Part shown: positions 21,794 through 51,668 of the stretch, piece by piece
Position numbering within the stretch: the first letter of the stretch is position 1
Layout: each line of letters starts with the position of its first letter
Virus record (IMG/VR): IMGVR_UViG_3300020036_001974
Span: 1 to 64,000 of that record
From: a virus
Taxonomy: Duplodnaviria; Caudoviricetes
DNA length: 64,000 nucleotides
Direction: 5' to 3' (one strand)
The notes under the pieces: model-generated
Databases searched by the model: none
What the model was told of the DNA's origin: nothing
Seen by the model: the letters and a program-made list of their open reading frames with translations, nothing else
Position numbers and translations under genes: made by a program

Positions 21794-22401
21794 CAAAGTA
21801 TTTAATCCTTATTATCGTGGTTTTAGCCATTGCTGGTAGTATATTCTTTAACAGGTGGCTCGTTCTAAGGGAACAGAATAAGCAAATCACTCAGTATGCT
21901 ATCCAGAAGAGTATGGAGGTTGAGTACTATAAGTTAGAGAACGGCCAATTAGTTGCTACCAAAGACGCTGCCATACTTGACCTAAAGACAGTAAAGAAGC
22001 TATCTGAAGATAAAGATCTACAGTGGATTAAACAGTTTGAAGGAATTAAGAAGAACCTCAGGAACTTAGAAACAGCTACTCAGATCAATACCGAGACGAT
22101 TGTTTCTATGAAAGGGAATATTACCGACACAGTAGTAGTTGTAGATAGTACCGAACACAAGGCTTTCAGCTTTGATAACTCTGATAAATGGATGGAGGTT
22201 AAAGGAGTTGTTATTCCTGATCTAAAAACAGTCGATACGTTTGTTAAGGTACAAGTCCCTATTGAGGGAGTAATGTTTTGGAAACGTAAGAAAGTTCTTG
22301 GATTGAGAATAGGTGGTAAGGAGTGGAGTAGTGAGTTTACATCTCCTAATCCGTATACCAAGATAACAAATCTTAATCAGATTTTAATTAAGCGCAGGTA
22401 G
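21790..22401 (+). CDS. Spanin-like (Rz-type) protein
   Basis: N-terminal TM helix, coiled coil, beta-rich C-terminus; last gene of the late operon. Confidence 0.55.
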   Translation: MTKYLILIIVVLAIAGSIFFNRWLVLREQNKQITQYAIQKSMEVEYYKLENGQLVATKDAAILDLKTVKKLSEDKDLQWIKQFEGIKKNLRNLETATQINTETIVSMKGNITDTVVVVDSTEHKAFSFDNSDKWMEVKGVVIPDLKTVDTFVKVQVPIEGVMFWKRKKVLGLRIGGKEWSSEFTSPNPYTKITNLNQILIKRR

Positions 22402-22580
22402 TCTGAGAAGGACAGAACTTCGTAATCGCTTCCTTTATTTGATGATTCATCTGCTATCCACCATGTTATACCACATGCTGTAGTTATTGTATTATCATTT
22501 ATTGATTCTATCCTTGTAATAACGTCTCCTTTTTCATAAATATCGTATAATTTAACCATGTCTCCTATCTTCATTATCAA
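22377..22580 (-). CDS. Tagged microprotein (KIGD type)
   Basis: Ends SFSDYLRLIKI; overlaps the spanin-like gene tail-to-tail. Confidence 0.7.
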   Translation of the reverse strand: MIMKIGDMVKLYDIYEKGDVITRIESINDNTITTACGITWWIADESSNKGSDYEVLSFSDYLRLIKI

Positions 22581-22676
22581 ATAGATTTAGCATAATAAGA
22601 ACAATAATACAAATAGTAAATACCGTAGCCATGTTGGGTCTTGTTTTCTTGTTTGTTTTAGTAATCTTAGCAGTAT

Positions 22677-22708
22677 ATACCGCCTACCTCCGGGGAAGTA
22701 GGCGGTAT
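22677..22708. terminator. Strong hairpin, probable terminator
   Basis: ATACCGCCTAC/GTAGGCGGTAT, 11-bp stem, intergenic. Confidence 0.6.
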
Positions 22709-22716
22709 GATGATGA

Positions 22717-22926
22717 CTAGGATATAATCTTAGAGGCTTTCGTATCCTCCTTGATAAAGGCTAAGTATTTATTAGCCCCGTCTACCACTTGCTCAAAAGT
22801 GAACACTCCGCTTCCTCCCTTTTCCAAAGAAGCTAAAGACAGTTGTAAAAGATTCATACGTAACTCTAAGTTACGATCTCTCATGTGTTGTTCGATGATT
22901 TGTGCGTTCTGTTTTGCTTGATCCAT
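22717..22926 (-). CDS. Hypothetical protein
   Basis: ORF track. Confidence 0.55.
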   Translation of the reverse strand: MDQAKQNAQIIEQHMRDRNLELRMNLLQLSLASLEKGGSGVFTFEQVVDGANKYLAFIKEDTKASKIIS

Positions 22927-22948
22927 TTTGTTTATTGTTTAGTTAAAT

Positions 22949-23344
22949 TTAAGCATTAGAATATCTTAGTTCTTGTTTTAAAGTAGAAATAGTTTGCCGG
23001 GATTGTTCAATAACAACATTGACCTGAGACATTAATAAGGATAACTTTTTATACATAGAATCAGAATCCATATGATCCTTATACAACCCTTTAAACGTGT
23101 CCTTGGCCAAGTTCTCAGCCTTACCTACCGGCAGAGCAGAAGTAGATATAAACCCACTTAAAGAGGATTTATACATGTACTCGGTGGTGTTCTTACGTTC
23201 ATACCACTCCCCTACCAAGGAGGCCAAGTAGTAAGAATTAATAGATAATCTCTCTGTTATCTGGGTTTTACTACCAATATCATTAGTGTTATTGGTACTC
23301 TTCAGTAGAGAAATGTCTTTCTCAATCTCTTCGATTATTTGCAT
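22949..23344 (-). CDS. Hypothetical helical protein
   Basis: ORF track; starts MQI inside the upstream LCK* junction. Confidence 0.6.
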   Translation of the reverse strand: MQIIEEIEKDISLLKSTNNTNDIGSKTQITERLSINSYYLASLVGEWYERKNTTEYMYKSSLSGFISTSALPVGKAENLAKDTFKGLYKDHMDSDSMYKKLSLLMSQVNVVIEQSRQTISTLKQELRYSNA

Positions 23345-23571
23345 AATTTTAAATATTTATTAAATGAAATCTCCTGCCACCTCCAAATATTACCATTAAT
23401 TGGTAAAGTACCCAAATTACTACCAATAGTCCAATTCATAACCTCAGAAAACGCAGTTGGTTTGGTTAATCTAATACAATCTTGATAATATAGATCAATA
23501 CATCTTTCACCTATTATAATTTCACCAATTCCTCCCTCATTACTGTCGTGTATACACTTAAATATCGCCAT
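23335..23571 (-). CDS. Tagged microprotein
   Basis: Ends SFNKYLKLCK. Confidence 0.75.
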   Translation of the reverse strand: MAIFKCIHDSNEGGIGEIIIGERCIDLYYQDCIRLTKPTAFSEVMNWTIGSNLGTLPINGNIWRWQEISFNKYLKLCK

Positions 23572-25348
23572 ATAGATCTGTTTTCTTGTTAAACATCTTT
23601 ATAATCTTGTTACACTCCGATATATAATACCGGGTATCTATATCATAAGGCCCTTCTTTCCACTCGTTAAACATGGTTACCTTACGCTTAACGTGTACAT
23701 TTCCATCTGTTTTATCAGTCTTTTTACGCAATACATCCCCTGATCTGGATATGTAATAACGTAAATGCTTCTGCAAAGGTTGCTCAATTACCATACCATT
23801 TTCAACTTTTCTTAGATAAAATTTACCTTTCTTAGCACGTTGCCCTATTAGGAACGGACTTATATCTTTGGTATCACAAATTGTGACCTCAACAGGTGTA
23901 CCTTTTAGGAAGAACTCTTTCAGGGCCATAGGCACAATCAACTGACTGTTATCCTTACCTAACTCCGGCTTACAGATAAACACCCCTTTTTCCTTAATAC
24001 CACCGTCTGTTTTAACAGCAAGATAGTTATTTATATCCCTTACAATCAACTTTGAGTAGGTAGAATGTTCCAGTTTAAGGTTAAACAGATCTTCCCACCA
24101 AGAGCAAATCTGGTGATATTTAACCCGGTCTATCATCTCAACCTCTATACCATCTGTATTGGCAAGAATTATCTTACAAGCCCCTTCTAAAGTCAGCCTC
24201 TCACATAACATAGCCAGTAGTAACTGACCGTTAATGGTAATCTTATAGAACATCATCGGATCATAGAAAGGGGAATACTCAGAGTTACTCTTACCAAAGG
24301 TTCCATTCTGAGCCAGTTTTAAGGCTTCATTCTCTGGTGTGCCCTTCTTATAAGTCTTTCTTTCAATCGCAATTTGTTTGTATACCTCTGTAAACGCCTC
24401 ACCGAAGTGAGCGGGTGCAAATTTACGAGAAACAGCGAGGGAAGGGTAAAAACCAGTAACATCACAGGAATCAACATCACTGTAGACAGCAGTTCCCCGG
24501 CAAGCATGGATACCGCCCAAACCAAAAAAGTACTCAACACCGTTGAAGTTACAAGAATAGTCCACTTCCTGATCGTTTGAAGTAACCACCGTAGCTTTAA
24601 ATTTGTCATATATTTCTTTAAATTCAGGTGAGGAAAACGATACCTCCGGTAGTATACAATCGGCTATTTTTACTTCTCTTCGTGGAGTTCTGCACTTCTT
24701 AAGTGAGTCGATAGATATTCCTATTTTATCACTGAGCATTTTAAGGATAATATATTCCCCTATTTTAGGGTCGTTGAAGTTACCCATATCAGTACCATAC
24801 TTCTCACCTAACTGTTTCCTCATTTTAATCTTAGGGAAGGTTAGTTCGTATAGCTTATAGGTAGCCATTACATCGTTAAGGTTATATTTAAGAACCTCGT
24901 CTATCTGGTCTTTAGTAATCTTATCCGAATGATGTATAGGCATATCCATTACATTCTCAAAACCCATATTAATCTGTAGCCATTTCAAAGAACAGAATTT
25001 AGACAAATTATCGAAATGATGGATTTTCATTAAATCCCGCTGCTTCCATCTCACTTCTACATACTCATTTCTCTCAGCCGTAATGCGCTTCTGTGCTACT
25101 TTGTAGATCTTGTTTTCAATCTTATCAACATCCCAGTTATCGTAGAAGAATTGAAGAATAGGAGTATCAAAGTCTATACAATTAAAACCCACAAGACTAA
25201 TGTCCTTAGAAATAAAGTCGTACAATAGCTTACGGTCGTCCCGGTCTTTATGAATAGCAAATTGAGATACCTTCTTAGTTGTAGGATTATAGAAAGTAAC
25301 GGTAAAGCAATTCTTAATAGTTTCAATGTCATATATCTCTATTTGCAT
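23558..25348 (-). CDS. polB: Family B DNA polymerase with 3'-5' exonuclease
   Basis: ExoI YDIET; motif A DVTGFYPS; motif B KLAQNGTFGK; motif C NTDG. Confidence 0.9.
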   Translation of the reverse strand: MQIEIYDIETIKNCFTVTFYNPTTKKVSQFAIHKDRDDRKLLYDFISKDISLVGFNCIDFDTPILQFFYDNWDVDKIENKIYKVAQKRITAERNEYVEVRWKQRDLMKIHHFDNLSKFCSLKWLQINMGFENVMDMPIHHSDKITKDQIDEVLKYNLNDVMATYKLYELTFPKIKMRKQLGEKYGTDMGNFNDPKIGEYIILKMLSDKIGISIDSLKKCRTPRREVKIADCILPEVSFSSPEFKEIYDKFKATVVTSNDQEVDYSCNFNGVEYFFGLGGIHACRGTAVYSDVDSCDVTGFYPSLAVSRKFAPAHFGEAFTEVYKQIAIERKTYKKGTPENEALKLAQNGTFGKSNSEYSPFYDPMMFYKITINGQLLLAMLCERLTLEGACKIILANTDGIEVEMIDRVKYHQICSWWEDLFNLKLEHSTYSKLIVRDINNYLAVKTDGGIKEKGVFICKPELGKDNSQLIVPMALKEFFLKGTPVEVTICDTKDISPFLIGQRAKKGKFYLRKVENGMVIEQPLQKHLRYYISRSGDVLRKKTDKTDGNVHVKRKVTMFNEWKEGPYDIDTRYYISECNKIIKMFNKKTDLYGDI

Positions 25349-25560
25349 AATTTCTCTAGGTATCCGTTAAAGTCAATTCGTGTATAATCAGAAAAATAGA
25401 AGCTGCTTATGTTTAATTCTACCCCTCTCTTAGTAAATCCTACAAATATCTTACCATTTGAATCTGTCCAATAATAGGTAACTATTTTATTATTAATCTT
25501 AAGAACATGGAGAATATCTCCATACTCATCTCGATACTTACCAACTTTAAGTTTACTCAT
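25339..25560 (-). CDS. Tagged microprotein (YYWTD type)
   Basis: Ends DFNGYLEKLCK; paralogue of 33642-33875. Confidence 0.75.
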   Translation of the reverse strand: MSKLKVGKYRDEYGDILHVLKINNKIVTYYWTDSNGKIFVGFTKRGVELNISSFYFSDYTRIDFNGYLEKLCK

Positions 25561-25796
25561 AGCAGTTTCAAATAATCGTTAAAATTCTTAACATATATCC
25601 AAGTCTTTGTTCTTAGGTAATACTCAACATCTTTCTTTAAATAAGTTGTTCTGCTGTAGCCTCCTTTTATATTCCACTCAATTACTACTCTCTCAATACC
25701 ATTCCTCCTTAATATATCACCTGTTGTATACTGTATATCATAAGAATCATTCTTAACAGTAAACTTTCTGCCGATTTGTATCATAATTATTTGCAT
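25557..25796 (-). CDS. Tagged microprotein
   Basis: Ends NFNDYLKLL. Confidence 0.75.
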   Translation of the reverse strand: MQIIMIQIGRKFTVKNDSYDIQYTTGDILRRNGIERVVIEWNIKGGYSRTTYLKKDVEYYLRTKTWIYVKNFNDYLKLL

Positions 25797-25918: not shown

Positions 25919-26231
25919 AAGTTTTCATTATTTCTAAACAGTGTTCCCAGTTCTTAAGAGATTTAAAATCCCCTTTATACCCTTCTATTTTAGAGTTGCA
26001 AGAGTGGCAAGCAGGGAAGTACATAACCGGGTTCCATATTAACTCAGTACGTCCTAGTTCTTTCAACCTAGCTTTAGGGATTATATGAGCAGATCCTTGG
26101 GCTTGTTTACCACATCCCATACAATAAGGCTTAGGATTAAAGGTATAAGTTTCTTTATAACTATCAGATAGTTTCTTTTGTATAGTAGCCTCAGATACCT
26201 TACTACCATCTGAACATTTATAGTAGTTCAT
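25878..26231 (-). CDS. NinG/HNH-like nuclease
   Basis: CMGCG....SAHIIPK ... CHSCN. Confidence 0.65.
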   Translation of the reverse strand: MNYYKCSDGSKVSEATIQKKLSDSYKETYTFNPKPYCMGCGKQAQGSAHIIPKARLKELGRTELIWNPVMYFPACHSCNSKIEGYKGDFKSLKNWEHCLEIMKTYDSETYNQFTSSL

Positions 26232-26416
26232 AGTTTCTTTAAGTATTCACTAAAAGCAACACCCTTGATATTAGAGTCATCGGCAACATATTGTTTATTG
26301 TAGAAAGAATACCACTTACTATTATAAGATACTTCACTTATCTTATATATCTCGTTTTCATTGAAGAAACTCATATATTGCTTCATAATAACAACATCTC
26401 CTACTTTATATTTCAT
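26228..26416 (-). CDS. Tagged microprotein (MKYKVGD type)
   Basis: Ends AFSEYLKKL. Confidence 0.75.
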   Translation of the reverse strand: MKYKVGDVVIMKQYMSFFNENEIYKISEVSYNSKWYSFYNKQYVADDSNIKGVAFSEYLKKL

Positions 26417-26616
26417 AATAACTTTAGATAATAGTTAAATGCTGAACCTTTTTCTTCCCAATTACCCCCACTCCATGTACCTATTTTACCAACCGGGTAA
26501 TAATGAGTGTTATAAGTATTCTTTATTAACATGTGTTTGTTACTAGACATGATTAATATCTCCATATCACAAAGACCTTCGTCATAAATATAATAAATAT
26601 ATCCAATCTTTTTCAT
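26413..26616 (-). CDS. Tagged microprotein
   Basis: Ends AFNYYLKLL. Confidence 0.75.
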   Translation of the reverse strand: MKKIGYIYYIYDEGLCDMEILIMSSNKHMLIKNTYNTHYYPVGKIGTWSGGNWEEKGSAFNYYLKLL

Positions 26617-28631
26617 ACATTAAAATGGTTTCTCCAGAATTGTTCTTCTTTATATAAACTCATATACTCATCACCAAACGCCATGCTCTCACTCCAGAAC
26701 CGGAATCGGCTAATATCACAGTTAATAAGATAATCCCTAACCTGCCCTTCTCTGTTCTTAACAACCCTAAGCATTGCCTTGTTCATTGCAGGTACTTCCA
26801 TACCAGTATCTGGGTGTTTGAGTAGTTCTTTCCTACGGTATTCAGGACGGTCAAGGATGATAAGTGTATCAGAGTTCTGTTCTATAGATTGTGAATCAGA
26901 TAGGTCAGTAACATCGGGGTATTCTTTAGTATCCGCAGTACGGTTAATCTGGGCTAATAGAAAACAAGAAAGACCAGTCTCATTAGCATGTTGCTTAAGG
27001 GTTTGAAGGAAGTTAGCTAGGTCATAAGTCTTATTACCATACTTAGCATTACCCTGAACCATCCCTACATAGTCTAATACCATTACAGGCTGGATCTTAA
27101 TACCTTCCATTTTCTCTTTCTTAGCTACCCCGGCTAACCATTCTAAGTTGGTCTTAATGATTGTTTCAATGTTGGTAGAGTATTGGTGGTAGGATATTGG
27201 AAACTTAGCTGCTTCAGCGTATGCTTTGTTAATCTCGGTACGGATGGCTTGAGGGAGTATCCTTGAGTACCGTAGTTCTGGTAGAGTAATTCCTACTTTC
27301 CAGCAAACATAACGATCTGCTAAAAAGGAAGCCTCCATTTCCCAAGAATAGATTAATAACTCACTACGTTTACCCTCTACTACTTTACCTGCTACCTCAC
27401 TCATTTGAGTTACAAGCCCTGTGTTATGGGTTACTGTAAAATCTTCTAAAAAGAATCTCTTATCATCGTTCTCTAGTTGAAAACCATAATAATTACCAAT
27501 ACCTATAGACTCTACAGAAATACCTGTCTTTGTTTTATCTATTCTAGTACTAGATGTTAGTAATTTCTTACGAGGTATTACTAATGGGAGAGTATTAAGA
27601 TCGTTACCAGAGATCACAGTTCTGTAATACACAGTACCGTTGACTACCTTCTCAGTAAGGTATCCTCTATACCCAAGAGAGTTTGACAGGTAAACAATAT
27701 CGCTGGCTAACTGACGATTTACTTGTACAATTTCGTAGGAATTAGATGCCATGTAGCCGTCTGTATCTAGTAATCCTGCTAATAATTGTTTTCTTTGATT
27801 TACAGAAGATGTTAAGTATTTATGTGGAATATGTTTGTTGGAATAAACATTAATATCCTTTAATACATCTGTAAAATACTTACCAGATGTATTTCTTCCG
27901 GTTATTGTTATTTCCTCGCAAGTTTTTCTATCATAGCGATTTATACCCCATCCTTCTTTATCTGTAATATCCTTTAAAGCATTGAATAATTCAATATCTG
28001 GTTTAAATATAGAAGCCTTATTATGACCACCGTCCCCTAACCATACTCCTAATAAATAAGGGTCTAACTCCAATATAACCTCGGGTTTAATCATTGTAGA
28101 TTTATAACCCTTATGAGAGAGCTTCCACTTATTTGTTTTTGTTAAATATTCATTTAGTGGAATATTAACAATCCCGCCTTTTACCCCATGTATTCCGTTT
28201 GTTATTTCCTTTCTTATCTTATTTCTATAATAAGCAGAGCCGGATGACTTTAAACTAAGAACATGAACAGAGTTAACAATATAATCAATCGCTCTGTTTT
28301 GTTTTATCTTAAACATTTCATCCTGTCCCTTACAAACAGAGACTACTTTATTAGGTCTACCATCTACACCCAATAGTAATTCTCCCGGTAAAATATCCTG
28401 CACTTCTTTAAAAGTACCATCAAACAGTATAACCTTAGTCCCGTAACCAAGGCACTTACCCTGACCACTACGGGCTGCAAGGGTTGTTACCTTACTAGGC
28501 ACATGACCACCGGTTATCATATTCAACTCATGAACCCCCATAGGAGTCCCGTATAACCCTATTTCCCTTGTAAGATTCGAGTGATACCTTTTATAAGATT
28601 TTTCAACGGCTGATCTTTGTTCAATAAGCAT
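26613..28631 (-). CDS. dnaB: DnaB-like replicative helicase with an intein
   Basis: AARSGQGK|T Walker A, YSWEM, LDYVG, LAQINR, DLSDSQSIEQNSD, VVKNREG. Confidence 0.9.
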   Translation of the reverse strand: MLIEQRSAVEKSYKRYHSNLTREIGLYGTPMGVHELNMITGGHVPSKVTTLAARSGQGKCLGYGTKVILFDGTFKEVQDILPGELLLGVDGRPNKVVSVCKGQDEMFKIKQNRAIDYIVNSVHVLSLKSSGSAYYRNKIRKEITNGIHGVKGGIVNIPLNEYLTKTNKWKLSHKGYKSTMIKPEVILELDPYLLGVWLGDGGHNKASIFKPDIELFNALKDITDKEGWGINRYDRKTCEEITITGRNTSGKYFTDVLKDINVYSNKHIPHKYLTSSVNQRKQLLAGLLDTDGYMASNSYEIVQVNRQLASDIVYLSNSLGYRGYLTEKVVNGTVYYRTVISGNDLNTLPLVIPRKKLLTSSTRIDKTKTGISVESIGIGNYYGFQLENDDKRFFLEDFTVTHNTGLVTQMSEVAGKVVEGKRSELLIYSWEMEASFLADRYVCWKVGITLPELRYSRILPQAIRTEINKAYAEAAKFPISYHQYSTNIETIIKTNLEWLAGVAKKEKMEGIKIQPVMVLDYVGMVQGNAKYGNKTYDLANFLQTLKQHANETGLSCFLLAQINRTADTKEYPDVTDLSDSQSIEQNSDTLIILDRPEYRRKELLKHPDTGMEVPAMNKAMLRVVKNREGQVRDYLINCDISRFRFWSESMAFGDEYMSLYKEEQFWRNHFNV
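27423..28454 (-). mobile_element. Intein with LAGLIDADG homing endonuclease (344 aa), in the helicase P-loop
   Basis: Starts CLGYGT after GK; ends VTHN before Thr; LLGVWLGDG and LLAGLLDTDG. Confidence 0.92.
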
Positions 28632-28810
28632 AAATATGTTTTAAATGTAACTAATTCAACATTATTATTTTCTACCCACTTAATTCCTCTCTTAGTTTCT
28701 ATCACAACACCAGCACCATTAGGTTTAGTAATATAGACTATTTTACCTACTATACCCTTCTCAATCCAAGGAGTGCTAATAATGGTTACAACTCTATCCC
28801 CCGCTTTCAT
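28559..28810 (-). CDS. Tagged microprotein (KAGD type)
   Basis: TFKTYLCLL overlaps the helicase ATG, followed by a 22-aa extension. Confidence 0.7.
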   Translation of the reverse strand: MKAGDRVVTIISTPWIEKGIVGKIVYITKPNGAGVVIETKRGIKWVENNNVELVTFKTYLCLLNKDQPLKNLIKGITRILQGK

Positions 28811-30239: not shown

Positions 30240-30443
30240 TTATTTGTTTAAAAGTTTAATATATTCATTGAATTCCTCAATAATTAACCATTCATCTATA
30301 TGCCAAATCATATCAGATTTATCTAATTTAATTGTTTTACCAATCTCTCCCCTAGTAAACTTAGTACCCGGGTTAACAAGAGTACAGTGTCTTTTATCAA
30401 TCATCTTCCAAATGATACCATATTGTTTATGTCTATACATCAT
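30240..30443 (-). CDS. Tagged microprotein (MMY type)
   Basis: Ends EFNEYIKLLNK. Confidence 0.75.
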   Translation of the reverse strand: MMYRHKQYGIIWKMIDKRHCTLVNPGTKFTRGEIGKTIKLDKSDMIWHIDEWLIIEEFNEYIKLLNK

Positions 30444-30637
30444 AATAGTTTCAAGTATTCGTTAAATGTAACAATCACCCACTGCCCTGAATCCCAAGAA
30501 TCACAATTAAGATAATTAGTTCTATAACCTACATCTTTTATAGTCCAACCTCCTCCGTGTTTAATAAGCGTTCCACTGGCTCTGTTATTAGGATCAACGT
30601 CCCATATAATGCCTTCTTTTTTGTGTTTATACATCAT
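30440..30637 (-). CDS. Tagged microprotein (MMY type)
   Basis: Ends TFNEYLKLL. Confidence 0.75.
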   Translation of the reverse strand: MMYKHKKEGIIWDVDPNNRASGTLIKHGGGWTIKDVGYRTNYLNCDSWDSGQWVIVTFNEYLKLL

Positions 30638-30822
30638 AGCAATTTCAAATATTCCTTAAATTCATAAAGTGCTTCCCATTCTGTACTTCTCCATTGCGTT
30701 GTAAAACGTTCTATCCTCCCAACAGCACTTTGATAGTATCCACCACCTGCTTTAATTAGAGTATAAGAACCGTCATCATTAAGCCTCCAGACAATACCCT
30801 TAGTTCTGTTTCTATACATCAT
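30634..30822 (-). CDS. Tagged microprotein (MMY type)
   Basis: Ends EFKEYLKLL. Confidence 0.75.
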   Translation of the reverse strand: MMYRNRTKGIVWRLNDDGSYTLIKAGGGYYQSAVGRIERFTTQWRSTEWEALYEFKEYLKLL

Positions 30823-31007
30823 AACATTTCCAGATAATCGTTAAAATTAACAATAACAAATCTCCATTTAAAATAGTAATTTCCTTTTATCTGAAAGCCA
30901 TCTCCTGTATCTATCGCATCGTGTATACTACCAATAGGAAATATATTAGTTTCGTCTGTAATATACCCAACCTTGTTACCACCATTAATATATTTAACCT
31001 TAATCAT
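30819..31007 (-). CDS. Tagged microprotein
   Basis: Ends NFNDYLEML. Confidence 0.75.
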   Translation of the reverse strand: MIKVKYINGGNKVGYITDETNIFPIGSIHDAIDTGDGFQIKGNYYFKWRFVIVNFNDYLEML

Positions 31008-31245
31008 TTATAGTCAGTTTAATTCCTACTTCTATACCTACCTCCCTTGCTATTAAAACAAGGGAATACTGGGTAAGGCGTTTACTATCCTTACCGTTTA
31101 AATAAAGACTAATATTACCCTTGTTTAACTGCAATTTCCGTGCCAATTCACTAATTGTCAGCTTCTTCTGAGTCATTTTATGACGGATTAATTCCCTTAA
31201 ATCCTCATTATCCCTTACCAAACAATACTTTCTTATAGCCAACAT
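31000..31245 (-). CDS. XRE-family helix-turn-helix protein
   Basis: LTISELARKLQLNKGNISLYLNG. Confidence 0.8.
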   Translation of the reverse strand: MLAIRKYCLVRDNEDLRELIRHKMTQKKLTISELARKLQLNKGNISLYLNGKDSKRLTQYSLVLIAREVGIEVGIKLTIND

Positions 31246-31451
31246 AAGTAATCTTTAAAGGTTGGTATTTTAGAAAACAAATGTTTAAATTTACTAATAG
31301 AATTATAAGTATGAGTTCCTTCTGTACGTAACCTCGATGTTTCTTTATTCCAAGCTACTGTAACTCCTCTTTTAGGTAAATCTATAATAGTATATATTGT
31401 ACCTCCTTTAACATTATCCTGATACCAACGGTATTTATCCCCTACTTGCAT
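31233..31451 (-). CDS. Tagged microprotein (QVGD type)
   Basis: Ends TFKDYLCWL, overlapping the HTH gene ATG. Confidence 0.7.
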   Translation of the reverse strand: MQVGDKYRWYQDNVKGGTIYTIIDLPKRGVTVAWNKETSRLRTEGTHTYNSISKFKHLFSKIPTFKDYLCWL

Positions 31452-31654
31452 AAGTTAATATATAGTTTAAAGGTAACTAACTCTGCATTTTGTTCTTTAA
31501 TAGCAGGTCTTAAGTAATCATTATAAGGAGTTTGCGATAATACATATGGAACACTGGAACCATCCTCATCAATAATAGCAATGGTTCCTTTCCTAATATA
31601 ACGACTATGTCGTGTCATTATCACCACGTCTCCTTTCTTAAACTTGTATTTCAT
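31442..31654 (-). CDS. Tagged microprotein (KKGD type)
   Basis: Ends TFKLYINLCK. Confidence 0.75.
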   Translation of the reverse strand: MKYKFKKGDVVIMTRHSRYIRKGTIAIIDEDGSSVPYVLSQTPYNDYLRPAIKEQNAELVTFKLYINLCK

Positions 31655-31830
31655 AATAGTTTTAGATAATCATTAAATAGTACATCTTTGAACCTATACT
31701 GGAACCATTTTATATTAATGTCCTGAAGTATATAGTAACCACTCCCAATAACTTCTTCAACCTTATAACAACAACCTCTTTTTAATCTACTGTTAGATTG
31801 TTCATCATCAATACAAATTACATACTTCAT
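31651..31830 (-). CDS. Tagged microprotein (not in track)
   Basis: MKYVICIDDEQ...KDVLFNDYLKLL*, 59 aa, ATGA overlap at both ends. Confidence 0.75.
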   Translation of the reverse strand: MKYVICIDDEQSNSRLKRGCCYKVEEVIGSGYYILQDINIKWFQYRFKDVLFNDYLKLL

Positions 31831-32552
31831 ATAGTTATTTCTTCAAATTGAACTGTTTCTTTAAGTAATCTTTTGCTACAGATTAAAGGGCATTTAGAAC
31901 AAGATGATTCTTTTGGGAATCTTGGGAACTCGTCTAATAACGAGTATTCATCCCATAAGGTTCGGGCACTGGAGAATCTTTGGTGGTACTCTTCAACAGC
32001 CTGATCACTTATATTAACCCGTATCTCCTTGATTCTCATCTTAGTAGAGTAGTCAAAGATAAGTAACCTCATTTCAGGAATTATACCGAAATTCTGTTCA
32101 TATAACCATTGGTAGTGGATTTGTTGAAGGAAATCTACAGTAGATAAATCACTCCACATACCTCCTTCTAAGTCGGCAGTTAGCTTAAGATCGTACACAA
32201 TCAATGGGTCTGTAGTAAAGTCAATAGTACCTTCCCTGTCTCCATGCTTGAGAACCAACTGCCTGTCCTTAATAACTTTACCACCAAAATCCTTATGATT
32301 AGGGTCAAACATATTCTTAAACCGTTCGGCCTGTTCTTCTATACGTAGGTGTTCAGCCGATTTACCCTTCTTTAGTAAGGGAAGTTCAGTTTGTTTACCA
32401 CCAACCCCAGAACCTAAACAAAGAGTTTCAAAGAAGGAACCCTTTTGCATAGGACTACCATCAGGTGCATCTGGTCTCTTAAGGATAAGTTCATTAGCTA
32501 ACCGAGGACACTCTGATTCAAGTACCTTTACAATAGATTGTGTTATTTGCAT
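31827..32552 (-). CDS. PD-(D/E)XK exonuclease (RecB/Cas4-like)
   Basis: EGTIDF.....VYDLKLT, LQQIHY, terminal CSKCP..C. Confidence 0.75.
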   Translation of the reverse strand: MQITQSIVKVLESECPRLANELILKRPDAPDGSPMQKGSFFETLCLGSGVGGKQTELPLLKKGKSAEHLRIEEQAERFKNMFDPNHKDFGGKVIKDRQLVLKHGDREGTIDFTTDPLIVYDLKLTADLEGGMWSDLSTVDFLQQIHYQWLYEQNFGIIPEMRLLIFDYSTKMRIKEIRVNISDQAVEEYHQRFSSARTLWDEYSLLDEFPRFPKESSCSKCPLICSKRLLKETVQFEEITI

Positions 32553-32764
32553 AGTTTTATATATTCGTTAAATGAACTTCTCCATTTCCAAACATTACCA
32601 TCTAAAAGCATAGTATTACCTAAATAGAGGTTTAGTATACCACACGCTTTTGTACGCTTTGTAATCTTGATATACACATCTTTCCCTATATACATAATAT
32701 CCCCGATCAGTGTTAATCCTAACACATTCCGTTTTGAATTACTATAATAACAAACAACCTTCAT
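32543..32764 (-). CDS. Tagged microprotein
   Basis: Ends GNVWKWRSSFNEYIKLCK. Confidence 0.75.
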   Translation of the reverse strand: MKVVCYYSNSKRNVLGLTLIGDIMYIGKDVYIKITKRTKACGILNLYLGNTMLLDGNVWKWRSSFNEYIKLCK

Positions 32765-36370: not shown

Positions 36371-36372
36371 AG

Positions 36373-36398
36373 AAAAAATACCCCCACTCAAGGGGGTA
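36373..36398 (-). terminator. Intrinsic terminator after the VWA gene
   Basis: TACCCCC/GGGGGTA stem followed by T6 on the minus strand. Confidence 0.65.
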
Positions 36399-40107: not shown

Positions 40108-40177
40108 TAGTTAAGGTTTATATAGTTAAAAGGATTCCTTAAGTCACCAAACGGACACAACACTTGTACGTTGTAGA

Positions 40178-40432
40178 CTAGGACGTTTTCTTTGTAGCTG
40201 AAGATTCTTGGGTATTGCATAACTTTAAATAGTTTTTAAACGGTGGAATATATATATCTCCTTTATCTAATTTAACAGGAAATTTATCATCTTTATATAA
40301 ATCACCAACCTGCCAACCTGTCTTATTATCAGAACCTTTTAAACACCTCCAACTAAGATCACCAATATAAATCCATTGGTAATTATTATGAGTTATATAG
40401 ATTCCCCCTATTGTTGGTGTTATTCTTTGCAT
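40178..40432 (-). CDS. Tagged microprotein
   Basis: PFKNYLKLC plus extension; overlaps a 37-aa MQY ORF (40107-40220). Confidence 0.7.
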   Translation of the reverse strand: MQRITPTIGGIYITHNNYQWIYIGDLSWRCLKGSDNKTGWQVGDLYKDDKFPVKLDKGDIYIPPFKNYLKLCNTQESSATKKTS

Positions 40433-40734
40433 AAATTAACGTATAAATCAAATGTTTTCTTAACAGGAGTCCACTTACCATCCCAATATTTGCCATTCAA
40501 ATACCAACTGCCTTGTTTTTGGGATATACTAACACCGGGTAAACCATTTAATCTATCTTTAGTAGTAACTGTTCTCCAACCGGCTGAGGATATATAAATG
40601 TTATTACCCTTGTGATAAGCAATAAGGTTACCGAATACTGTAAGGTTGTTTCCATCTGTTTCTGTATTAGAAACCTTACAATACCTACGTTCTAAGAACG
40701 CCTTAATTACTGGTTGTATAGACTTTCTACTCAT
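40420..40734 (-). CDS. Widespread-type phage hypothetical protein carrying the tag
   Basis: GW.TVTTKDRLNGL core; ends TFDLYVNLCKE. Confidence 0.7.
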   Translation of the reverse strand: MSRKSIQPVIKAFLERRYCKVSNTETDGNNLTVFGNLIAYHKGNNIYISSAGWRTVTTKDRLNGLPGVSISQKQGSWYLNGKYWDGKWTPVKKTFDLYVNLCKE

Positions 40735-40964: not shown

Positions 40965-41153
40965 TTATTTAAAAGTGGGTATTAGCTTAATATAGTTATT
41001 AAACGAAAAGGGAGAAGCATTCGGTTTATCTTTATAATGATAACACGGAGTCCTTGACCAGTTATTCATATTTACACCATGTACCCATCTTGGAGTGGGG
41101 TCAGGATATAACCAAAATATAGGTTTTCCACAGTATTTACAAGTATAGTTCAT
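40965..41153 (-). CDS. Tagged Zn-ribbon microprotein
   Basis: CKYCG...C.H; ends SFNNYIKLIPTFK. Confidence 0.75.
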   Translation of the reverse strand: MNYTCKYCGKPIFWLYPDPTPRWVHGVNMNNWSRTPCYHYKDKPNASPFSFNNYIKLIPTFK

Positions 41154-41335
41154 TTTTCAATTAGTTCTAAATAAGATATAAAAGCATAAGGTTCGTAAGA
41201 AATGGGTAAGTCACCACTATAAGGAAAATTATAACCTTTGTCCAAATTAGTTACCTCTTTAGGATCTGAGATAATAGTTATAACCTTATTACTAAGATCT
41301 AATATAACACCTGATATTTTATGTTTATATAGCAT
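41150..41335 (-). CDS. Tagged microprotein (MLYKHK type)
   Basis: Ends AFISYLELIEK. Confidence 0.65.
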   Translation of the reverse strand: MLYKHKISGVILDLSNKVITIISDPKEVTNLDKGYNFPYSGDLPISYEPYAFISYLELIEK

Positions 41336-44794: not shown

Positions 44795-45016
44795 TTACTG
44801 TTTATGGCAAGATGAACCACTCGGTTTTTCAAGGTAGGTAAGGTAGGCTCTAAAGAAAGCAGGAGTATGGAAAAACCCACCTAATGTATTATGTAGACCA
44901 AAACAAAAGAACCCGTTACTATGTACCTTTCCTTTCTTATAAGAATTGGATATTTCCTGACTCCACCAATCTTTACCGAGACTCTCTATCTCATATCCAC
45001 ATCTGCTGCATTTCAT
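44795..45016 (-). CDS. Tagged Zn-ribbon microprotein
   Basis: CSRCG...C...H; FFRAYLTYL. Confidence 0.6.
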   Translation of the reverse strand: MKCSRCGYEIESLGKDWWSQEISNSYKKGKVHSNGFFCFGLHNTLGGFFHTPAFFRAYLTYLEKPSGSSCHKQ

Positions 45017-45355: not shown

Positions 45356-45526
45356 TCATAGTAATTTTAAATAATTGGTAAAATTAATAGGTTTCAAGTC
45401 TTTTGTATAGCAGATATTTACATTCCCATCTGTAAACTTTATACGTGATACCAGACCTTCTTTACTCATTGCTTCAATATCACATACCCTACCCATACGG
45501 CTTAATACTCTATCGCCTATCTTCAT
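45356..45526 (-). CDS. Tagged microprotein (MKIGD type, not in track)
   Basis: MKIGDRVLS...KPINFTNYLKLL*, 56 aa. Confidence 0.75.
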   Translation of the reverse strand: MKIGDRVLSRMGRVCDIEAMSKEGLVSRIKFTDGNVNICYTKDLKPINFTNYLKLL

Positions 45527-48529: not shown

Positions 48530-48816
48530 TTACGTTTCAGTTTAATCCTCTTTCTATCGTACCAATACTCTATATACGAATCATTAACGAAAATAGTTAC
48601 AAAAAGTTCATCTTTTTTTGCCAAGATGAGGGCTGCGTCTATTCTACCGGTATCCTTGTCTACCCGAACCTGCTCCAGATGGGTCACTGGTAAGGTAATG
48701 TACCCATATTCACGAACATAGAAGGATACACTATCGTTTTGAACTAATATCCTGCCAGATATATCATAGCTCCCGGAAGTGGTAACATACATGGTCCAGT
48801 ATATGATCCACTTCAT
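48526..48816 (-). CDS. Hypothetical protein
   Basis: ORF track; ATGA-coupled to the RF gene. Confidence 0.55.
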   Translation of the reverse strand: MKWIIYWTMYVTTSGSYDISGRILVQNDSVSFYVREYGYITLPVTHLEQVRVDKDTGRIDAALILAKKDELFVTIFVNDSYIEYWYDRKRIKLKRK

Positions 48817-49046
48817 AGAGTTTTTAGATAGTCGTTAAATGATAGTATTTTACTATACCCATCTTTTTTAGTGGGTCTCCATTTAAGACAATTACCACTC
48901 ATCTCAGGTCTATTAGTTATATTAATTATCTCCCCTTTCCATAACAACCATCTCCACTTTAAACTATTACCTTCATTAAAGATTTGAAGTATATTATTAT
49001 TTATAAATCTCCATCTCCCTATATACTCACTGTTGGACATAATCAA
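48813..49046 (-). CDS. Tagged microprotein
   Basis: Ends SFNDYLKTL. Confidence 0.7.
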   Translation of the reverse strand: MIMSNSEYIGRWRFINNNILQIFNEGNSLKWRWLLWKGEIINITNRPEMSGNCLKWRPTKKDGYSKILSFNDYLKTL

Positions 49047-49263: not shown

Positions 49264-49384
49264 GCTCCTATTGGATTTTTGATTTTTATTAACTTGTCAT
49301 TTCCAGCGTAGTGATAGTGAATATAGAACTCACTTTCACATACTATTCCATTTTTGATCTCTGTGTCTGTCTCTATAACCTTAA

Positions 49385-49615
49385 TTACTGGCTTTTGACA
49401 GATCGGGCATTGCGTTTGCATCGTTTTATATAGTCTTTGAATTTATAATCAGGTTCCAGTTCCCAACACCACTGAGTCCATGATTCTGTAGCAGGATACT
49501 CATGGTAGTAATCAGGTTCAATATTCTTTTTATCATCTCCTGTAAGTTCTGCAACAAGATATTCATCAGGGTCTATACCCCATAATAACTTACGACCACA
49601 GGTCTTACATTTCAT
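49385..49615 (-). CDS. Tagged Zn-ribbon microprotein
   Basis: CKTCG; KFKDYIKRCK overlaps the MQT start of 49167-49421. Confidence 0.7.
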   Translation of the reverse strand: MKCKTCGRKLLWGIDPDEYLVAELTGDDKKNIEPDYYHEYPATESWTQWCWELEPDYKFKDYIKRCKRNARSVKSQ

Positions 49616-50343
49616 TTCTTAATAGGATAAGTACTATAAGAACCACAAGACTTACACTGGTACTGTTGAACCTGAATCCCCCCGGCTGTCAATCTCACCA
49701 TCTTCTTAGCTAAAGAATTACTTCCACAATTCCGGCAAGCACAATCTGACTTAGGAGTTGAAAAAGGATGGTTTTCAATATAAGGTCTTATTTTAAGATA
49801 GACCTCCTCCAGACGAACAACGTCTATTTTATTATATTTAACCATTTCAGCTACTGCTAGTCTTTCTCCTCTCATAGCCCGGAGCCACATTCCTGTTGAG
49901 GTTTCAATCTTACCATGCCCTATTAGCTTTTTACCTAAAAAGTCAAGACGGTTGGAGGTAAAGGCAGCTATTTTCTTTATTTCCTTGAGGGTATCCAGTT
50001 GAACAATCTTAGGCAGCGGTTTTAAACCGTGAAAGATCAACCTCGCATTTAATTTTTTAGTATCGAATTTTTTAGAATTATGCCCTATTAGAATATCTGC
50101 TTCTTCTAAAGCCTCTCTAAGGGCTTTACAAACCCCATAATCATCATCTGCCGACTTACGCTTAAAGTCATTGATTGAGGTAGATTTTACACTCTTAGCT
50201 CCTAGTTCCTTCCAAGCTGCTGAGATAATGAAGGTATCCTGAAGGATGTCAGTGTGGTTAATGTGGTCCTGATACAGGCTCCAAGTAGTAGCAATAATTG
50301 GAGAAGTTTCGATGTCGTATAGAACTATCTTAGGTTTTCTCAT
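49612..50343 (-). CDS. DnaQ/RNase H-like 3'-5' exonuclease with a C-terminal Zn ribbon
   Basis: YDIETS, GHNSKKFD, YNKIDV, CRNCG...CKSC. Confidence 0.85.
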   Translation of the reverse strand: MRKPKIVLYDIETSPIIATTWSLYQDHINHTDILQDTFIISAAWKELGAKSVKSTSINDFKRKSADDDYGVCKALREALEEADILIGHNSKKFDTKKLNARLIFHGLKPLPKIVQLDTLKEIKKIAAFTSNRLDFLGKKLIGHGKIETSTGMWLRAMRGERLAVAEMVKYNKIDVVRLEEVYLKIRPYIENHPFSTPKSDCACRNCGSNSLAKKMVRLTAGGIQVQQYQCKSCGSYSTYPIKK

Positions 50344-50546
50344 TTTAAAAGGTTTAAATATTTATTAAAAGAAACTTCTATAAATCTATCTTTATACCAA
50401 GGACCACTCCATTCACCATTTACTTTAACCTCTATCAATTCCCTGTCACTGTTATCAAACGTGTATGTGGTTTCGGCAATCTCATACACTTTACAGGCTA
50501 TAAGTAAAGAACCGGGAGTTGTTGATATACACTTAGCGTACTTCAT
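50340..50546 (-). CDS. Tagged microprotein
   Basis: Ends SFNKYLNLLK. Confidence 0.75.
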   Translation of the reverse strand: MKYAKCISTTPGSLLIACKVYEIAETTYTFDNSDRELIEVKVNGEWSGPWYKDRFIEVSFNKYLNLLK

Positions 50547-50958
50547 TCTTAATCCTGTCTATTTCCATTAAAAGATAATGAACTGACTTGTAGAGATCTT
50601 TAACATCTCCGCTCTTTCCGTACCCTGAGGTAAGGTAGCGTTTGTTATACTTAAGGCTGTTGCCTACGTTAAAACCTTTCCCATGTTGGGAACTTCTCAT
50701 AAGATGGTACAGGTCCACCTCTGGTTCTCCTTCTTCGTACTTATCCTTGAAGGTTGATAATACGTGGGACACTACTTCACCAATAGAAGTAACAATAGCA
50801 GAATCGTAAAGATCAAGCTCCACGAGATCACTGGATACTTTATTATTAGCTTTATCAGCGTCATTGATTCTACTTTGTTCTGCTTTTTCTAAGATTTTGT
50901 AAATTGACTGTTCTTCCATGTTATTCTTGTTGCGTTTCTTGATGTATACGATCAACAA
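50533..50958 (-). CDS. DUF3310-like protein
   Basis: GFNVGNSLKY..RY...K....DLYKSVHYL. Confidence 0.7.
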   Translation of the reverse strand: MLIVYIKKRNKNNMEEQSIYKILEKAEQSRINDADKANNKVSSDLVELDLYDSAIVTSIGEVVSHVLSTFKDKYEEGEPEVDLYHLMRSSQHGKGFNVGNSLKYNKRYLTSGYGKSGDVKDLYKSVHYLLMEIDRIKNEVR

Positions 50959-51526
50959 GGCTTAAAGGTTTCACTTCTTGTGAAGTTTCTTCAATAAATA
51001 CTTCATCTTTTATATCAGCTATCTTTGCAAGCTTCTTTTTAGCTTCAACAAGATCCGGGATTGTCATGAGTAGTGCATTTCGCTTTTTCAGCTCATCTGT
51101 CTCCACAGGAACATCCTTTCCATCCACATTGGTAGTGGAGGACATTATAGTCTTTTTGATTAATTCTATTTGTTTGTTGATTATCTCCAGCATATCCCGA
51201 TCCTCATCGTGCTGGATCTCTAGGTACTTAGCAAGGGCTGCTTCTATCTTTGGGTTCTTACCTTCTACTATCTCCCGGGCACGGAGATCAAGTGTCTCAT
51301 GGTTTCTATTCTGAATCTTACCACCTGCTGACAGAATGGCTAATTCTTTTCTTTTAGTAATAGGGTGTTGTTTTAAAGGAGACTTGTAATCAGCTACAAG
51401 CATTACATACCTCATCCACTTGTCTCCAACCCTTGCATCTTCTTCTAATGCAGCAAATTCAGGTATAAGTCTTAATCCATTATGGGAATCAAATACCGAC
51501 TTTCCCCGTTCTATCTGGTAAAGCAT
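50921..51526 (-). CDS. Conserved phage hypothetical protein (possible small terminase)
   Basis: Helical; 'Y...VADYKSP' pattern recalled from crAss-like genes near terL. Confidence 0.4.
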   Translation of the reverse strand: MLYQIERGKSVFDSHNGLRLIPEFAALEEDARVGDKWMRYVMLVADYKSPLKQHPITKRKELAILSAGGKIQNRNHETLDLRAREIVEGKNPKIEAALAKYLEIQHDEDRDMLEIINKQIELIKKTIMSSTTNVDGKDVPVETDELKKRNALLMTIPDLVEAKKKLAKIADIKDEVFIEETSQEVKPLSLVDRIHQETQQE

Positions 51527-51668
51527 CTAAATAGTTATTAAAATTAATAGGATAATGAAAAGCAGGATAGTGTATATCTTTACAATAAGGGTTTGAATCT
51601 TTATCAAGATACAAACCTATTACTTTAGTTTTAACCAGTTCTACCTTGCAATATTTACATTTATACAT
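51489..51668 (-). CDS. Tagged Zn-ribbon microprotein (not in track)
   Basis: MYKCKYCK...C...H...INFNNYLDALPDRTGKVGI*, 59 aa. Confidence 0.7.
   Translation of the reverse strand: MYKCKYCKVELVKTKVIGLYLDKDSNPYCKDIHYPAFHYPINFNNYLDALPDRTGKVGI

Follow-up and report, generated by a model that had tools for sequence, protein, structure and literature searches.

A conserved C-terminal octapeptide on 40 diverse small proteins from the minus-strand arm of an uncultured crAss-like phage, a putative portable contact element

The window analysed here, a 64,000-nucleotide stretch of viral DNA, comes from an uncultured crAss-like phage whose host is probably in Bacteroidota. On its minus strand, 40 small genes of 55-104 aa, spanning 22377-51668, terminate in the motif F-x-x-Y-[LIVM]-x-x-[LCI] (Table 1). 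The set comprises 37 initial ORFs plus 34696-34875, 35979-36191, and 28559-28810. The motif, or tag, is followed by 0 to 20 residues before the stop, and by only 0 to 2 in 31 of the 37 genes measured. Its consensus is the eight-residue sequence F-x-x-Y-L-K-L-L, a predicted helix. F and Y are invariant in all 40 members, including those recovered by looser patterns, and two polar positions are partly conserved, +1 being N in 51% and +5 being K in 62%. The tagged proteins are mostly basic, aromatic-rich, and predicted to be beta-rich; the evolutionary evidence for coding indicates that they are real small proteins.

Table 1. The 40 tagged genes, with protein length in aa and residues downstream of the tag after a hyphen or plus sign.
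Position (strand)	Length	Tag	Remarks
51489..51668 (-)	59	FNNYLDAL + 9 aa	CxxC...C..H body
50340..50546 (-)	68	FNKYLNLL-K	
49385..49615 (-)	76	FKDYIKRC + 10 aa	CxxC body; P0005 is a near-identical homologue
48813..49046 (-)	77	FNDYLKTL	
45356..45526 (-)	56	FTNYLKLL	
44795..45016 (-)	73	FRAYLTYL + 11 aa	CxxC...C...H body; downstream start uncoupled
41150..41335 (-)	61	FISYLELI-EK	Body class shared with 30240-30822
40965..41153 (-)	62	FNNYIKLI-PTFK	CxxC body (weak Phage_zn_bind_5 match, E 0.008)
40420..40734 (-)	104	FDLYVNLC-KE	Kyano_Gp96/phrog_554-like domain, then appended tag
40178..40432 (-)	84	FKNYLKLC + 12 aa	
39901..40107 (-)	68	FNHYIKLL-Q	
39464..39649 (-)	61	FNYYLEKL	
39255..39467 (-)	70	FNAYLRRL	N-terminus MKYNVGDV (SH3-like start)
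39091..39258 (-)	55	FNEYLKLL	
36188..36391 (-)		FSTYLKLL	Start probably an internal ATG (MIYRHK...), since the TTG start falls inside a terminator-like hairpin
35979..36191 (-)	70	FSDYLILI-KR	Orthologue L020:448-657
35785..36027 (-)	probably 65	FNDYIKLI-Q	From internal ATG, as in L014 and L020 calls
35597..35788 (-)	63	FSEYLKLL-K	dN/dS 0.08 against L020
35251..35448 (-)	65	FKDYMKLC-T	Tandem paralogue 35063-35260
35063..35260 (-)	65	FKYYLKLC-SK	
34851..35075 (-)	74	FTKYIKLC + 6 aa	
34696..34875 (-)	59	FNNYIYLC-TNG	Tag overlaps start of 162-aa gene in another frame
34057..34260 (-)	67	FKHYLDKL	
33872..34060 (-)	62	FSNYIKRL	N-terminus MKYKIGDVV
33642..33875 (-)	77	FNAYLILC-K	Paralogue 25339-25560
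32543..32764 (-)	73	FNEYIKLC-K	Body groups with 23335-23571 and the Gp96-like gene
31651..31830 (-)	59	FNDYLKLL	
31442..31654 (-)	70	FKLYINLC-K	
31233..31451 (-)	72	FKDYLCWL	
30819..31007 (-)	62	FNDYLEML	
30634..30822 (-)	62	FKEYLKLL	MMYR(H/N)K class
30440..30637 (-)	65	FNEYLKLL	AF2 model: beta body, C-terminal helix 58-64
30240..30443 (-)	67	FNEYIKLL-NK	
28559..28810 (-)	83	FKTYLCLL + 20 aa	N-terminus MKAGDRVV; tail overlaps helicase start
26413..26616 (-)	67	FNYYLKLL	
26228..26416 (-)	62	FSEYLKKL	N-terminus MKYKVGDVV
25557..25796 (-)	79	FNDYLKLL	
25339..25560 (-)	73	FNGYLEKL-CK	
23335..23571 (-)	78	FNKYLKLC-K	Slot between polA and conserved 131-aa gene
22377..22580 (-)	67	FSDYLRLI-KI	Final gene of arm; three diverged strains retain the tag

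The larger enzymes (polA, DnaB-like helicase, primase, exonuclease, and MoxR-like ATPase) lack the motif, as do the plus-strand genes with the sole exception of a weak look-alike at 8074-8742. The preliminary description, which reported about 40 such ORFs and no motif in core enzymes or plus-strand virion genes, is thus borne out apart from that one case. A strict form, F..Y[LI]..[LC], lies within the last 22 residues of 31 of the 71 small minus-strand ORFs and at no internal position in them. When the residues of these proteins are shuffled 500 times, the mean is 0.27 and the maximum 2, and Markov-2 shuffles of the region yield 5.2 matches over six frames, compared with 34 on the real minus strand. 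Chance matches are far rarer than the observed ones.

Selection acts on the peptide. The codons vary much as first described: Phe is TTT in 32 and TTC in 5 of 37 genes, Tyr is TAT in 24 and TAC in 13, seven Leu/Ile codons are used at +4, and Leu is written with five codons. This synonymous usage follows background frequencies (TAT/TAC 0.66/0.34 in tags, 0.67/0.33 in the genome). In orthologue pairs from strains at 75-95% nucleotide identity, tag codons have a dN/dS of 0.079 (dS 0.98), compared with 0.384 (dS 0.76) for the bodies of the same genes. A nucleotide PWM of the tag, which checks for a DNA-only signal, finds 42 matches, almost all of them in-frame gene ends: 35 are known tags, three of the remaining seven are additional in-frame ends of tagged genes, and there is no intergenic cluster of tag-like DNA among the 42.

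Close strains differ by gain, loss, duplication, and replacement of tagged genes, and these changes fall exactly at gene boundaries. Such a pattern would also be produced if the tag were a recombination or cassette junction, its shared 3' microhomology permitting cassette swaps and its peptide being incidental. We consider this very improbable: the tags are only about 70% identical as DNA, their synonymous sites are saturated, purifying selection targets the amino acids, and no inverted-repeat or attC-like structure is present.

The end of the tag is also shaped by the gene that follows. In 28 of 37 tagged genes, the next ATG lies at F+20, F+23, or F+26. The last Leu of the tag is always YTA, and eight of the 11 Cys codons at +7 are TGC. 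Both this final YTA and the alternation of Leu and Cys arise because the next gene's ATG overlaps them (YTA-TGA, or TTA-TGC, giving Cys); the Leu/Cys position of the preliminary motif is indeed seen, but its Cys is forced by the neighbor. Furthermore, the phage uses no Shine-Dalgarno sequence (SD-like 4-mers occur in 6 of 94 and 4 of 22 genes), and its host is likewise SD-less. Together with the A/T-rich tag codons, these features could suggest that the tag is an expression signal for the gene behind it: an A/U-rich stretch where translation initiates in an SD-less host, or a nascent peptide that influences termination and re-initiation at the ATGA overlap. However, the untagged helicase, primase, 241-aa, and 162-aa genes are equally well ATGA-coupled, the conservation is codon-periodic with free synonymous sites, and the distance from tag to its own stop varies from 0 to 20 codons. 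Six tagged genes keep the tag even though the nearest downstream start is 38-187 nt past the Phe codon, and no coupled start follows 44795-45016, 36188-36391, 40965-41153, or 30240-30443. In 34696-34875, the downstream ATG precedes the tag. Finally, 22377-22580, which closes the arm and is followed by no gene on its strand, retains the tag, written in GC-richer codons, and does so in three strains. An expression signal is thus improbable; the overlap is a secondary constraint that leaves the tag itself unexplained. Because the tag is kept without a coupled gene, its codons are used at background frequencies, and its dN/dS is low relative to that of the bodies, the comparisons indicate that purifying selection maintains the peptide and not its DNA, as had been proposed.

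The tag also survives rapid turnover of the bodies. All 14 related genes in L018-L020 retain F, Y, and the aliphatic positions. In related strains, tagged genes are extra, missing, or replaced in the same slots, and the tag is always present. The body of 23335-23571 is hypervariable between strains, yet its tag is retained, even in relatives whose 131-aa protein is only 51% identical. The tag is restricted to a small clade; it was not found in polymerase relatives at 30-40% identity or in IMG/VR.

The N-terminal parts fall into many clusters, about 30 of which stay unlinked after iterative HMM searches. At least three body types carry the tag: a Kyano_Gp96-like domain, CxxC...C/H bodies with Pro-rich segments before the tag, and SH3-like bodies (MKxKVGDVV starts). 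Residues 3-83 of 40420-40734 match phrog_554 (E 2e-11) and score 26.6 bits against Pfam Kyano_Gp96 (PF23790), below the cut-off of 27. Homologues of this gene at 87-98% identity have intact tags and those at 61-66% decayed ones; those at 53-63% stop at ...WxGxWxx[VI], immediately before the tag position, and family members in other phages end short of it. Since these homologues end before the tag, and CxxC and SH3-like bodies carry it too, the tag is portable among several unrelated bodies. At the same time, many members are recognizable local or tandem paralogues, and much of the array arose by local duplication. The claim of several unrelated N-terminal classes therefore stands for at least three body types, but several of the classes are clear local paralogues; likewise, a common element on variable proteins is supported by the Gp96-like, CxxC, and SH3-like bodies, although many members are diverged tandem copies. 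Part of the body diversity may be fast divergence within one family, given these paralogues and a W-x-G-x-W aromatic hairpin that precedes the tag in several bodies, as in the Gp96-like gene.

The predicted structure bears on this question. The module opens with the final beta-strand ([WYF]-x-x-[IVL]); an N-cap residue (S/T/N/D) then leads into an amphipathic helix of two turns, F-[NKS]-x-Y-[LI]-K-L-[L/C/I], which begins one residue past the hydrophobic strand. Position -2 is I/V/L, forming a hydrophobic staple with Y at +3, and +2 frequently holds D or E, as in a capping box. This N-cap and staple pattern after a strand is typical for a helix packed on its own sheet. Because the tag is fused straight to the last strand through the N-cap, without a linker, the helix may pack on its own body and have a purely structural role. 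Consistent with this, the AF2 model of 30440-30637 gives the helix a pLDDT of about 80, equal to the body. In the model of 40420-40734, the Gp96-like domain reaches 80-91 and the appended helix 47-57, a low value that may reflect only the 9-sequence alignment used.

A small ancestral beta-protein, perhaps related to Gp96, whose C-terminal helix packed on its own sheet could have been duplicated some 40 times, with arms-race selection diverging the bodies and the helix conserved only to hold the fold, without a common partner. The tandem paralogues and the recurring hairpin fit such a history, and phages are known to harbor lineage-specific expansions of small domains, such as the roughly 35 Zn-ribbon copies of Bacillus phage G, of undefined function and probably conflict-related (PMC7824862). 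However, the Gp96-like homologues fold without the helix, and the Pro-rich CxxC...C/H bodies and the 9-20 residue tails after some tags are a poor fit to one fold. In addition, there are no F/L/W or Y/F exchanges in the 40 paralogues and their orthologues, stricter than is usual for a packing helix, and the tag's dN/dS is one-fifth that of the bodies. A single hyper-diverged family capped by this helix is therefore a rather unlikely explanation. The invariance of F and Y over all bodies, together with the partly conserved polar sites, fits one binding surface better than many intramolecular packings.

The preliminary description knew of no matching system. This holds for the tag sequence, but shared address peptides are known. 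In T-even phages, one short conserved peptide, the CTS, is found on the diverse, fast-evolving small internal proteins IPI, IPII, IPIII, and Alt (PMC3012670), leaving the remainder free to vary, as here. The CTS, however, is N-terminal, cut off by the prohead protease, and recognized by the scaffolding core on a few virion-packaged proteins, whereas this tag is C-terminal, unrelated in sequence, and present on 40 early/replication-arm genes, with nothing to indicate cleavage or loading into virions. T4 gp43, gp55, and gp33 end in similar, interchangeable short hydrophobic motifs that dock on the hydrophobic patch of a clamp hub, and genuine docking epitopes, the gp55 C-terminus among them, are borne on linkers that are flexible and variable (PMC2988020). 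The likeness lies in closely similar short C-terminal motifs on functionally different proteins. Clamp-binding motifs of T4 and bacteria, though, are hydrophobic-acidic, extended, flexibly linked, and found on three to a few proteins, unlike the linker-free amphipathic helix of these 40 proteins. The window shows no clamp gene, and its polymerase belongs to family A. The phage G genome likewise contains dozens of small paralogues, but these are copies of one recognizable domain; here the sole universal element is an eight-residue terminal helix carried by at least three types of body. One of these, the Kyano_Gp96-like family, lacks the helix in other phages and covers only between one and three of the 40 genes here.

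Our tentative reading, with a probability of about 0.48, is that the helix is a common protein-protein contact element on 40 diverse small early proteins. Such a role is suggested by selection on the peptide, the several bodies, and their turnover. Many different small proteins from the minus-strand early/replication arm could engage one common surface through the helix, its F/Y/L/L face making the contact and the variable bodies carrying the individual activities. This surface might belong to a hub of the phage or of the host, to an adaptor or protease, or to the tagged proteins themselves; binding might lead to recruitment, sorting, or timed turnover. The tag thus looks like a putative portable docking or address element on fast-evolving early proteins.

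Forty minus-strand ORFs of 55 to 104 aa terminate in F-x-x-Y-[LIVM]-x-x-[LCI], and in all 40 this tag lies 0 to 20 residues from the C-terminus; 1 to 20 residues follow it in 24. Three of the genes (34696-34875, 35979-36191, and 28559-28810) were added through a nucleotide PWM scan and the genes called on a near-identical contig. The shared C-terminal motif of the preliminary description is borne out, since its strict form falls within the final 22 residues in 31 of the 71 small ORFs and never occurs internally, while residue shuffles of the same proteins give a mean of 0.27 strict motifs and a maximum of 2. Phe and Tyr are invariant in all members, and looser patterns returned no F-to-L/W/Y or Y-to-F/W variants. 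The tag was originally described as eight residues long; the motif stands but the conserved module is longer, reaching back to an aromatic residue at about -5/-6 (relative to the Phe), with I/V/L at -2 and S/T/N/D, a helix N-cap, at -1. Within the tag, the consensus beyond F and Y is N at +1 (51%), D/E at +2, K at +5 (62%), and L at +6 (68%). Most of the tagged proteins are basic (median pI of 9.1), and they are rich in aromatic residues (15%).

The sequence analyzed comprises bases 1-64000 of a 73.5-kb IMG/VR record whose completeness is estimated by CheckV at ~51%. Its minus-strand arm, which carries the replication genes, spans ~22.3-52.4 kb, and between these genes are ~70 small ORFs, most of them linked through ATGA overlaps. 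The portal protein is 23-27% identical to portals of crAss-like, Flavobacterium, and Cellulophaga phages. Shine-Dalgarno sequences are nearly absent (6 of 94 minus-strand and 4 of 22 plus-strand genes), and the host is therefore very probably a member of the Bacteroidota. A sigma-70 promoter scan yielded matches only at the level of shuffled sequence; this model is not applicable to Bacteroidota. When read with table 11, the long plus-strand ORFs are unbroken, which gives no indication that a stop codon has been reassigned.

Annotated features of the minus-strand arm
Feature	Position	Strand	Remark
Family-A DNA polymerase	23558-25348	minus	
DnaB-like helicase with intein	26613-28631	minus	Hom_end_hint / LAGLIDADG matches on the gene of the near-identical contig L014
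Primase	32761-33651	minus	
DUF2201_N/DUF2201 vWA/metallopeptidase-like protein	36403-37692	minus	adjoins MoxR-like ATPase; mid-array
MoxR-like AAA+ ATPase	37658-38803	minus	phrog_1297; mid-array, amid tagged genes
RF-1/PCRF-domain protein, 171 aa	within 47843-48529	minus	Pfam RF-1, E 3e-17
Polymerase-exonuclease subunit	49612-50343	minus	

Several other features of the genome were noted. A strong terminator-like hairpin (36398-36379) follows the MoxR/DUF2201 genes and overlaps the TTG start assigned to 36188-36391. A 53-aa ORF (48368-48529, minus strand) stops 7 nt upstream of the start of the RF-1/PCRF-domain gene, and a single tRNA-Thr (TGT; 52707-52779, minus strand) marks the boundary of the two arms. 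Two probable mobile elements are an HNH endonuclease gene (42132-42911, plus strand), located within the minus-strand arm on the opposite strand, and a gene for a homing endonuclease (8742-9548, plus strand) in the structural arm. PHROG matches to the 961-aa large terminase (54267-57152, plus strand) fall on either side of an insert of ~250 aa, a pattern suggestive of a second intein.

Outside the 40 genes, a few sequences resemble the tag. The 104-aa product of 53990-54304 (plus strand), just upstream of the large terminase gene, begins MNNFNDYIAEI, a tag-like F-N-D-Y-I-x-x-I that is the top plus-strand match of the tag PWM (rough chance expectation ~0.07); it may reflect chance or a related helix. 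The only tag-like tail among plus-strand genes belongs to 8074-8742, which encodes a 222-aa structural-arm protein without family match ending in ...AFFKSYLSMVSAPIFD (F-x-x-Y-L-x-x-V, 7 aa from the end), and is probably due to chance. On the minus strand, degenerate tag-like tails are present in 25787-25918 (43 aa; ...SWDNLKLCK) and 40107-40220 (37 aa; ...PFNYINLN), which may be decayed members or spurious ORFs. Two untagged minus-strand genes, 41335-41538 and 31000-31245, have a C-terminal stretch of another type in common, (D/E)[IV]GIEVGx(L/K)LTI, and form a second, small paralogue pair inside the array.

Multiple lines of evidence point to selection on the tag as a peptide. Its Tyr codons (TAT/TAC, 0.66/0.34) match the genome background (0.67/0.33), the Leu at +4 is encoded by TTA, CTT, CTA, TTG, or CTG, and the information content across the tag has a 1-2-3 codon periodicity. 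Comparison with relatives from Logan assemblies, namely L018 and L019 (83-95% nucleotide identity) and L020 (75-80%), gave a dN/dS of 0.079 (dS 0.98) for the tag codons in eight orthologue pairs, versus 0.384 (dS 0.76) for the bodies, or remaining portions, of the same genes; for untagged neighbours, the values are 0.03-0.16. This pattern indicates that the ORFs are coding, that the bodies evolve fast, and that protein-level constraint on the tag is ~5-fold stronger, with free drift at its synonymous sites. The earlier argument from synonymous variation to peptide selection is thus upheld, and on the periodicity together with the dN/dS values a DNA-level signal is rejected. A PWM built from the tag DNA found 42 matches, 35 of which are known tags; the remaining seven comprise three in-frame tagged gene ends absent from the first gene list and four single weak matches, with no cluster in intergenic or out-of-frame sequence. 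Given this codon evidence and the internal controls, it is quite improbable that the tag is an expression signal, and hardly credible that it marks a recombination junction.

Overlap with the following gene does leave its mark on the end of the tag. In 28 of 37 tagged genes the next ATG begins 20, 23, or 26 nt from the Phe codon. The final Leu is always YTA, as YTA-TGA includes an ATG, and the Cys alternative at +7 is TTA-TGC, in which the ATG is shifted upstream by one codon, and TGC is favoured here because TGT-AAA would give ATG-TAA in the next frame. Both the constant YTA and the Cys option are therefore ascribed to the overlapping start. ATGA coupling is also found at untagged genes, and the tag is kept without a coupled start in 22377-22580, the last gene of the arm, and in at least five others. 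In 34696-34875, it is kept even though the downstream ATG precedes it. Coupling thus shapes the last residues of the tag and is not the reason for its presence.

The bodies are far less alike. Once the tag is trimmed off, they fall by BLASTP and iterative HMM searches into small groups of 6, 4, 3, 3, and 3, some pairs, and ~20 singletons, in keeping with the several N-terminal classes described previously. The group of six consists of MMYR(H/N)K-type genes, and local duplication is evident, for example at 35063-35448 and 30240-30822. Common ancestry could be masked by very fast divergence, and for a subset of bodies shared hairpins preceding the tag hint at it. Three kinds of body can be discerned. 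The 104-aa product of 40420-40734 is assigned by sequence to the Kyano_Gp96/phrog_554 domain: it matches phrog_554 (E 2.3e-11, residues 3-83) and scores 26.6 bits against Pfam Kyano_Gp96, just below the cut-off of 27, and its homologues carry a precomputed PF23790 assignment. Pfam and PHROGs searches of the tagged proteins gave no other family. Four tagged genes combine a CxxC...C-x(1-3)-H body with a Pro-rich segment ahead of the tag and a tail of 4-11 residues beyond it. Many others begin MKxK[VI]GD[VI]V, a start typical of SH3-like barrels.

These three kinds of body argue for the tag as a portable module. In other phages, homologues of the Gp96-like protein at 53-63% identity end in ...W-x-G-x-W-x-x-[VI], directly before the position of the tag; those at 61-66% have decayed tags (FQMYLAEN, FVRYYKAA) and those at 87-98% intact ones. 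No tags were found in the neighbours of the untagged P0023 homologue (63% identical) on an unrelated phage contig. Both the Gp96 homologues that lack a tag and the CxxC bodies also stand against the main rival explanation, in which the helix simply closes the fold in a single paralogue family that has diverged explosively; we consider this rival doubtful. That explanation finds support in the N-cap/staple geometry of the tag and in its attachment, since a single N-cap residue joins it to the last strand with no linker. An AlphaFold2 model of the 30440-30637 product has a beta-rich body and a C-terminal helix (mean pLDDT of 77.5, helix ~80), whereas in that of the Gp96-like protein a confident domain (pLDDT 80-91) bears an appended helix at just 47-57; both alignments are shallow, making this contrast weak evidence. 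Neither model gave a convincing match to a solved fold: Foldseek against the PDB and a wide VIA-align search with the 30440-30637 model returned only noise (best Z of 3.9), along with chromodomain, Tudor, and SH3-like rows at E ~5, Foldseek found no match for the Gp96-like model, and the ESM Atlas yielded only unnamed small-protein clusters.

The array has a narrow distribution. A search of 5.8 billion and 1.84 billion proteins with the A1 profile recovered only this phage and its near relatives; contigs >99% identical to the window come from four JGI samples. Relatives occur in SRR25679414, SRR18653128, SRR12486993, SRR14092352, SRR25160617, SRR32678438, and the JGI 33000200xx samples. Between strains, the tagged cassettes turn over rapidly. 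L018 (1382-1576) and L019 (116-304) carry one more tagged gene (62-64 aa), flanked by the 131-aa and 69-aa genes, L020 (63-657 and 1573-1773) has 3-4 tagged genes without a counterpart in the window, and the pair at 35063-35448 is a single gene in L020. A tagged gene always occupies the position between the polymerase gene and the conserved 131-aa gene. Its body can scarcely be recognised from one strain to the next (39% identity), while its C-terminal hairpin and tag persist. This is so even in the relatives L047 and L048, whose 131-aa protein is only 51% identical and in which the tag reads FNDYLKQI or FQDYLNQI, followed by a tail of 8-9 residues. At 30-40% polymerase identity, no tags were found in the IMG/VR and JGI metagenome loci; tag-like tails occur in 1 of 2023 ORF segments of polymerase-anchored relative loci versus 36 of 661 in the window. 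Three DNA pattern scans of IMG/VR gave either 0 matches or 43 single matches attributed to chance, none of them close to another tagged gene, and a scan of GTDB genomes gave one intergenic chance match, in Aquimarina, and no other arrays. Thus, profiling of the motif across related phages and Bacteroidota, as proposed in the preliminary description, extends it to close relatives and to no further array in IMG/VR or GTDB genomes.

Two familiar functions for a terminal helix were considered and set aside. An ssrA-like degron is recognized by its free C-terminal residues (LAA-COOH type); here, the trailing residues vary (none, K, CK, NK, Q, SK, KE, PTFK, or 6-20 aa), so that the setting of the C-terminal carboxylate is not conserved, which rejects a ClpX-type free-C-terminus signal. 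A membrane-targeting helix is unlikely in view of the invariant F and Y and a length of just two turns.

The systems nearest in logic are the capsid targeting sequence of T4 internal proteins, a single conserved peptide on otherwise diverse proteins (PMC3012670), and the C-termini of T4 gp43, gp55, and gp33, which are interchangeable and dock on the sliding clamp (PMC2988020). However, the T4 targeting sequence is N-terminal on its cargo, whereas the tag is C-terminal in 40 of 40 cases. The T4 sequence is cleaved by the prohead protease and marks virion proteins; the tagged genes sit in the replication arm, opposite the structural genes. The T4 clamp epitope is hydrophobic-acidic, extended, and located at the extreme C-terminus after a flexible, variable linker (PMC2988020), unlike the K-rich, linkerless helix with its frequent trailing residues. 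No sliding clamp family was present among the PHROG/Pfam matches of the larger genes of this incomplete record. The ~35 Zn-ribbons of phage G, a lineage-specific expansion of a small domain (PMC7824862), are similar in copy number; the tag differs in its multi-body character.

The pattern, seen in an uncultured phage, is real and strong; its function is putative. The peptide-level constraint, the portability, the strict conservation of Phe and Tyr on unrelated bodies, and the partly conserved polar positions favour the reading of the tag as a portable amphipathic docking helix, to which we assign a probability of just under one half. Through such a helix, many different small early proteins would share one common surface. 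A more specific version, in our view unlikely, is that the helix serves as the address label of an undescribed phage protein-addressing system, in which a single phage or host receptor would recognize F-x-x-Y-L-K-L-L on ~40 interchangeable early effectors and recruit them, load them, or time their activity.

Over half of this phage's small early genes bear the one conserved helix. If it is a docking handle, a pull-down with the peptide (8-16 residues) could reveal a central infection hub of a crAss-like Bacteroidota phage, give a functional entry to ~40 "hypothetical" microproteins at once, and allow the tag to be used as a portable label that brings proteins to this hub. Should it instead be a fold element, the array would still be among the largest tandem micro-domain expansions in a medium-sized phage. 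The gain and loss of genes between strains makes the array suited to the study of arms-race gene evolution.
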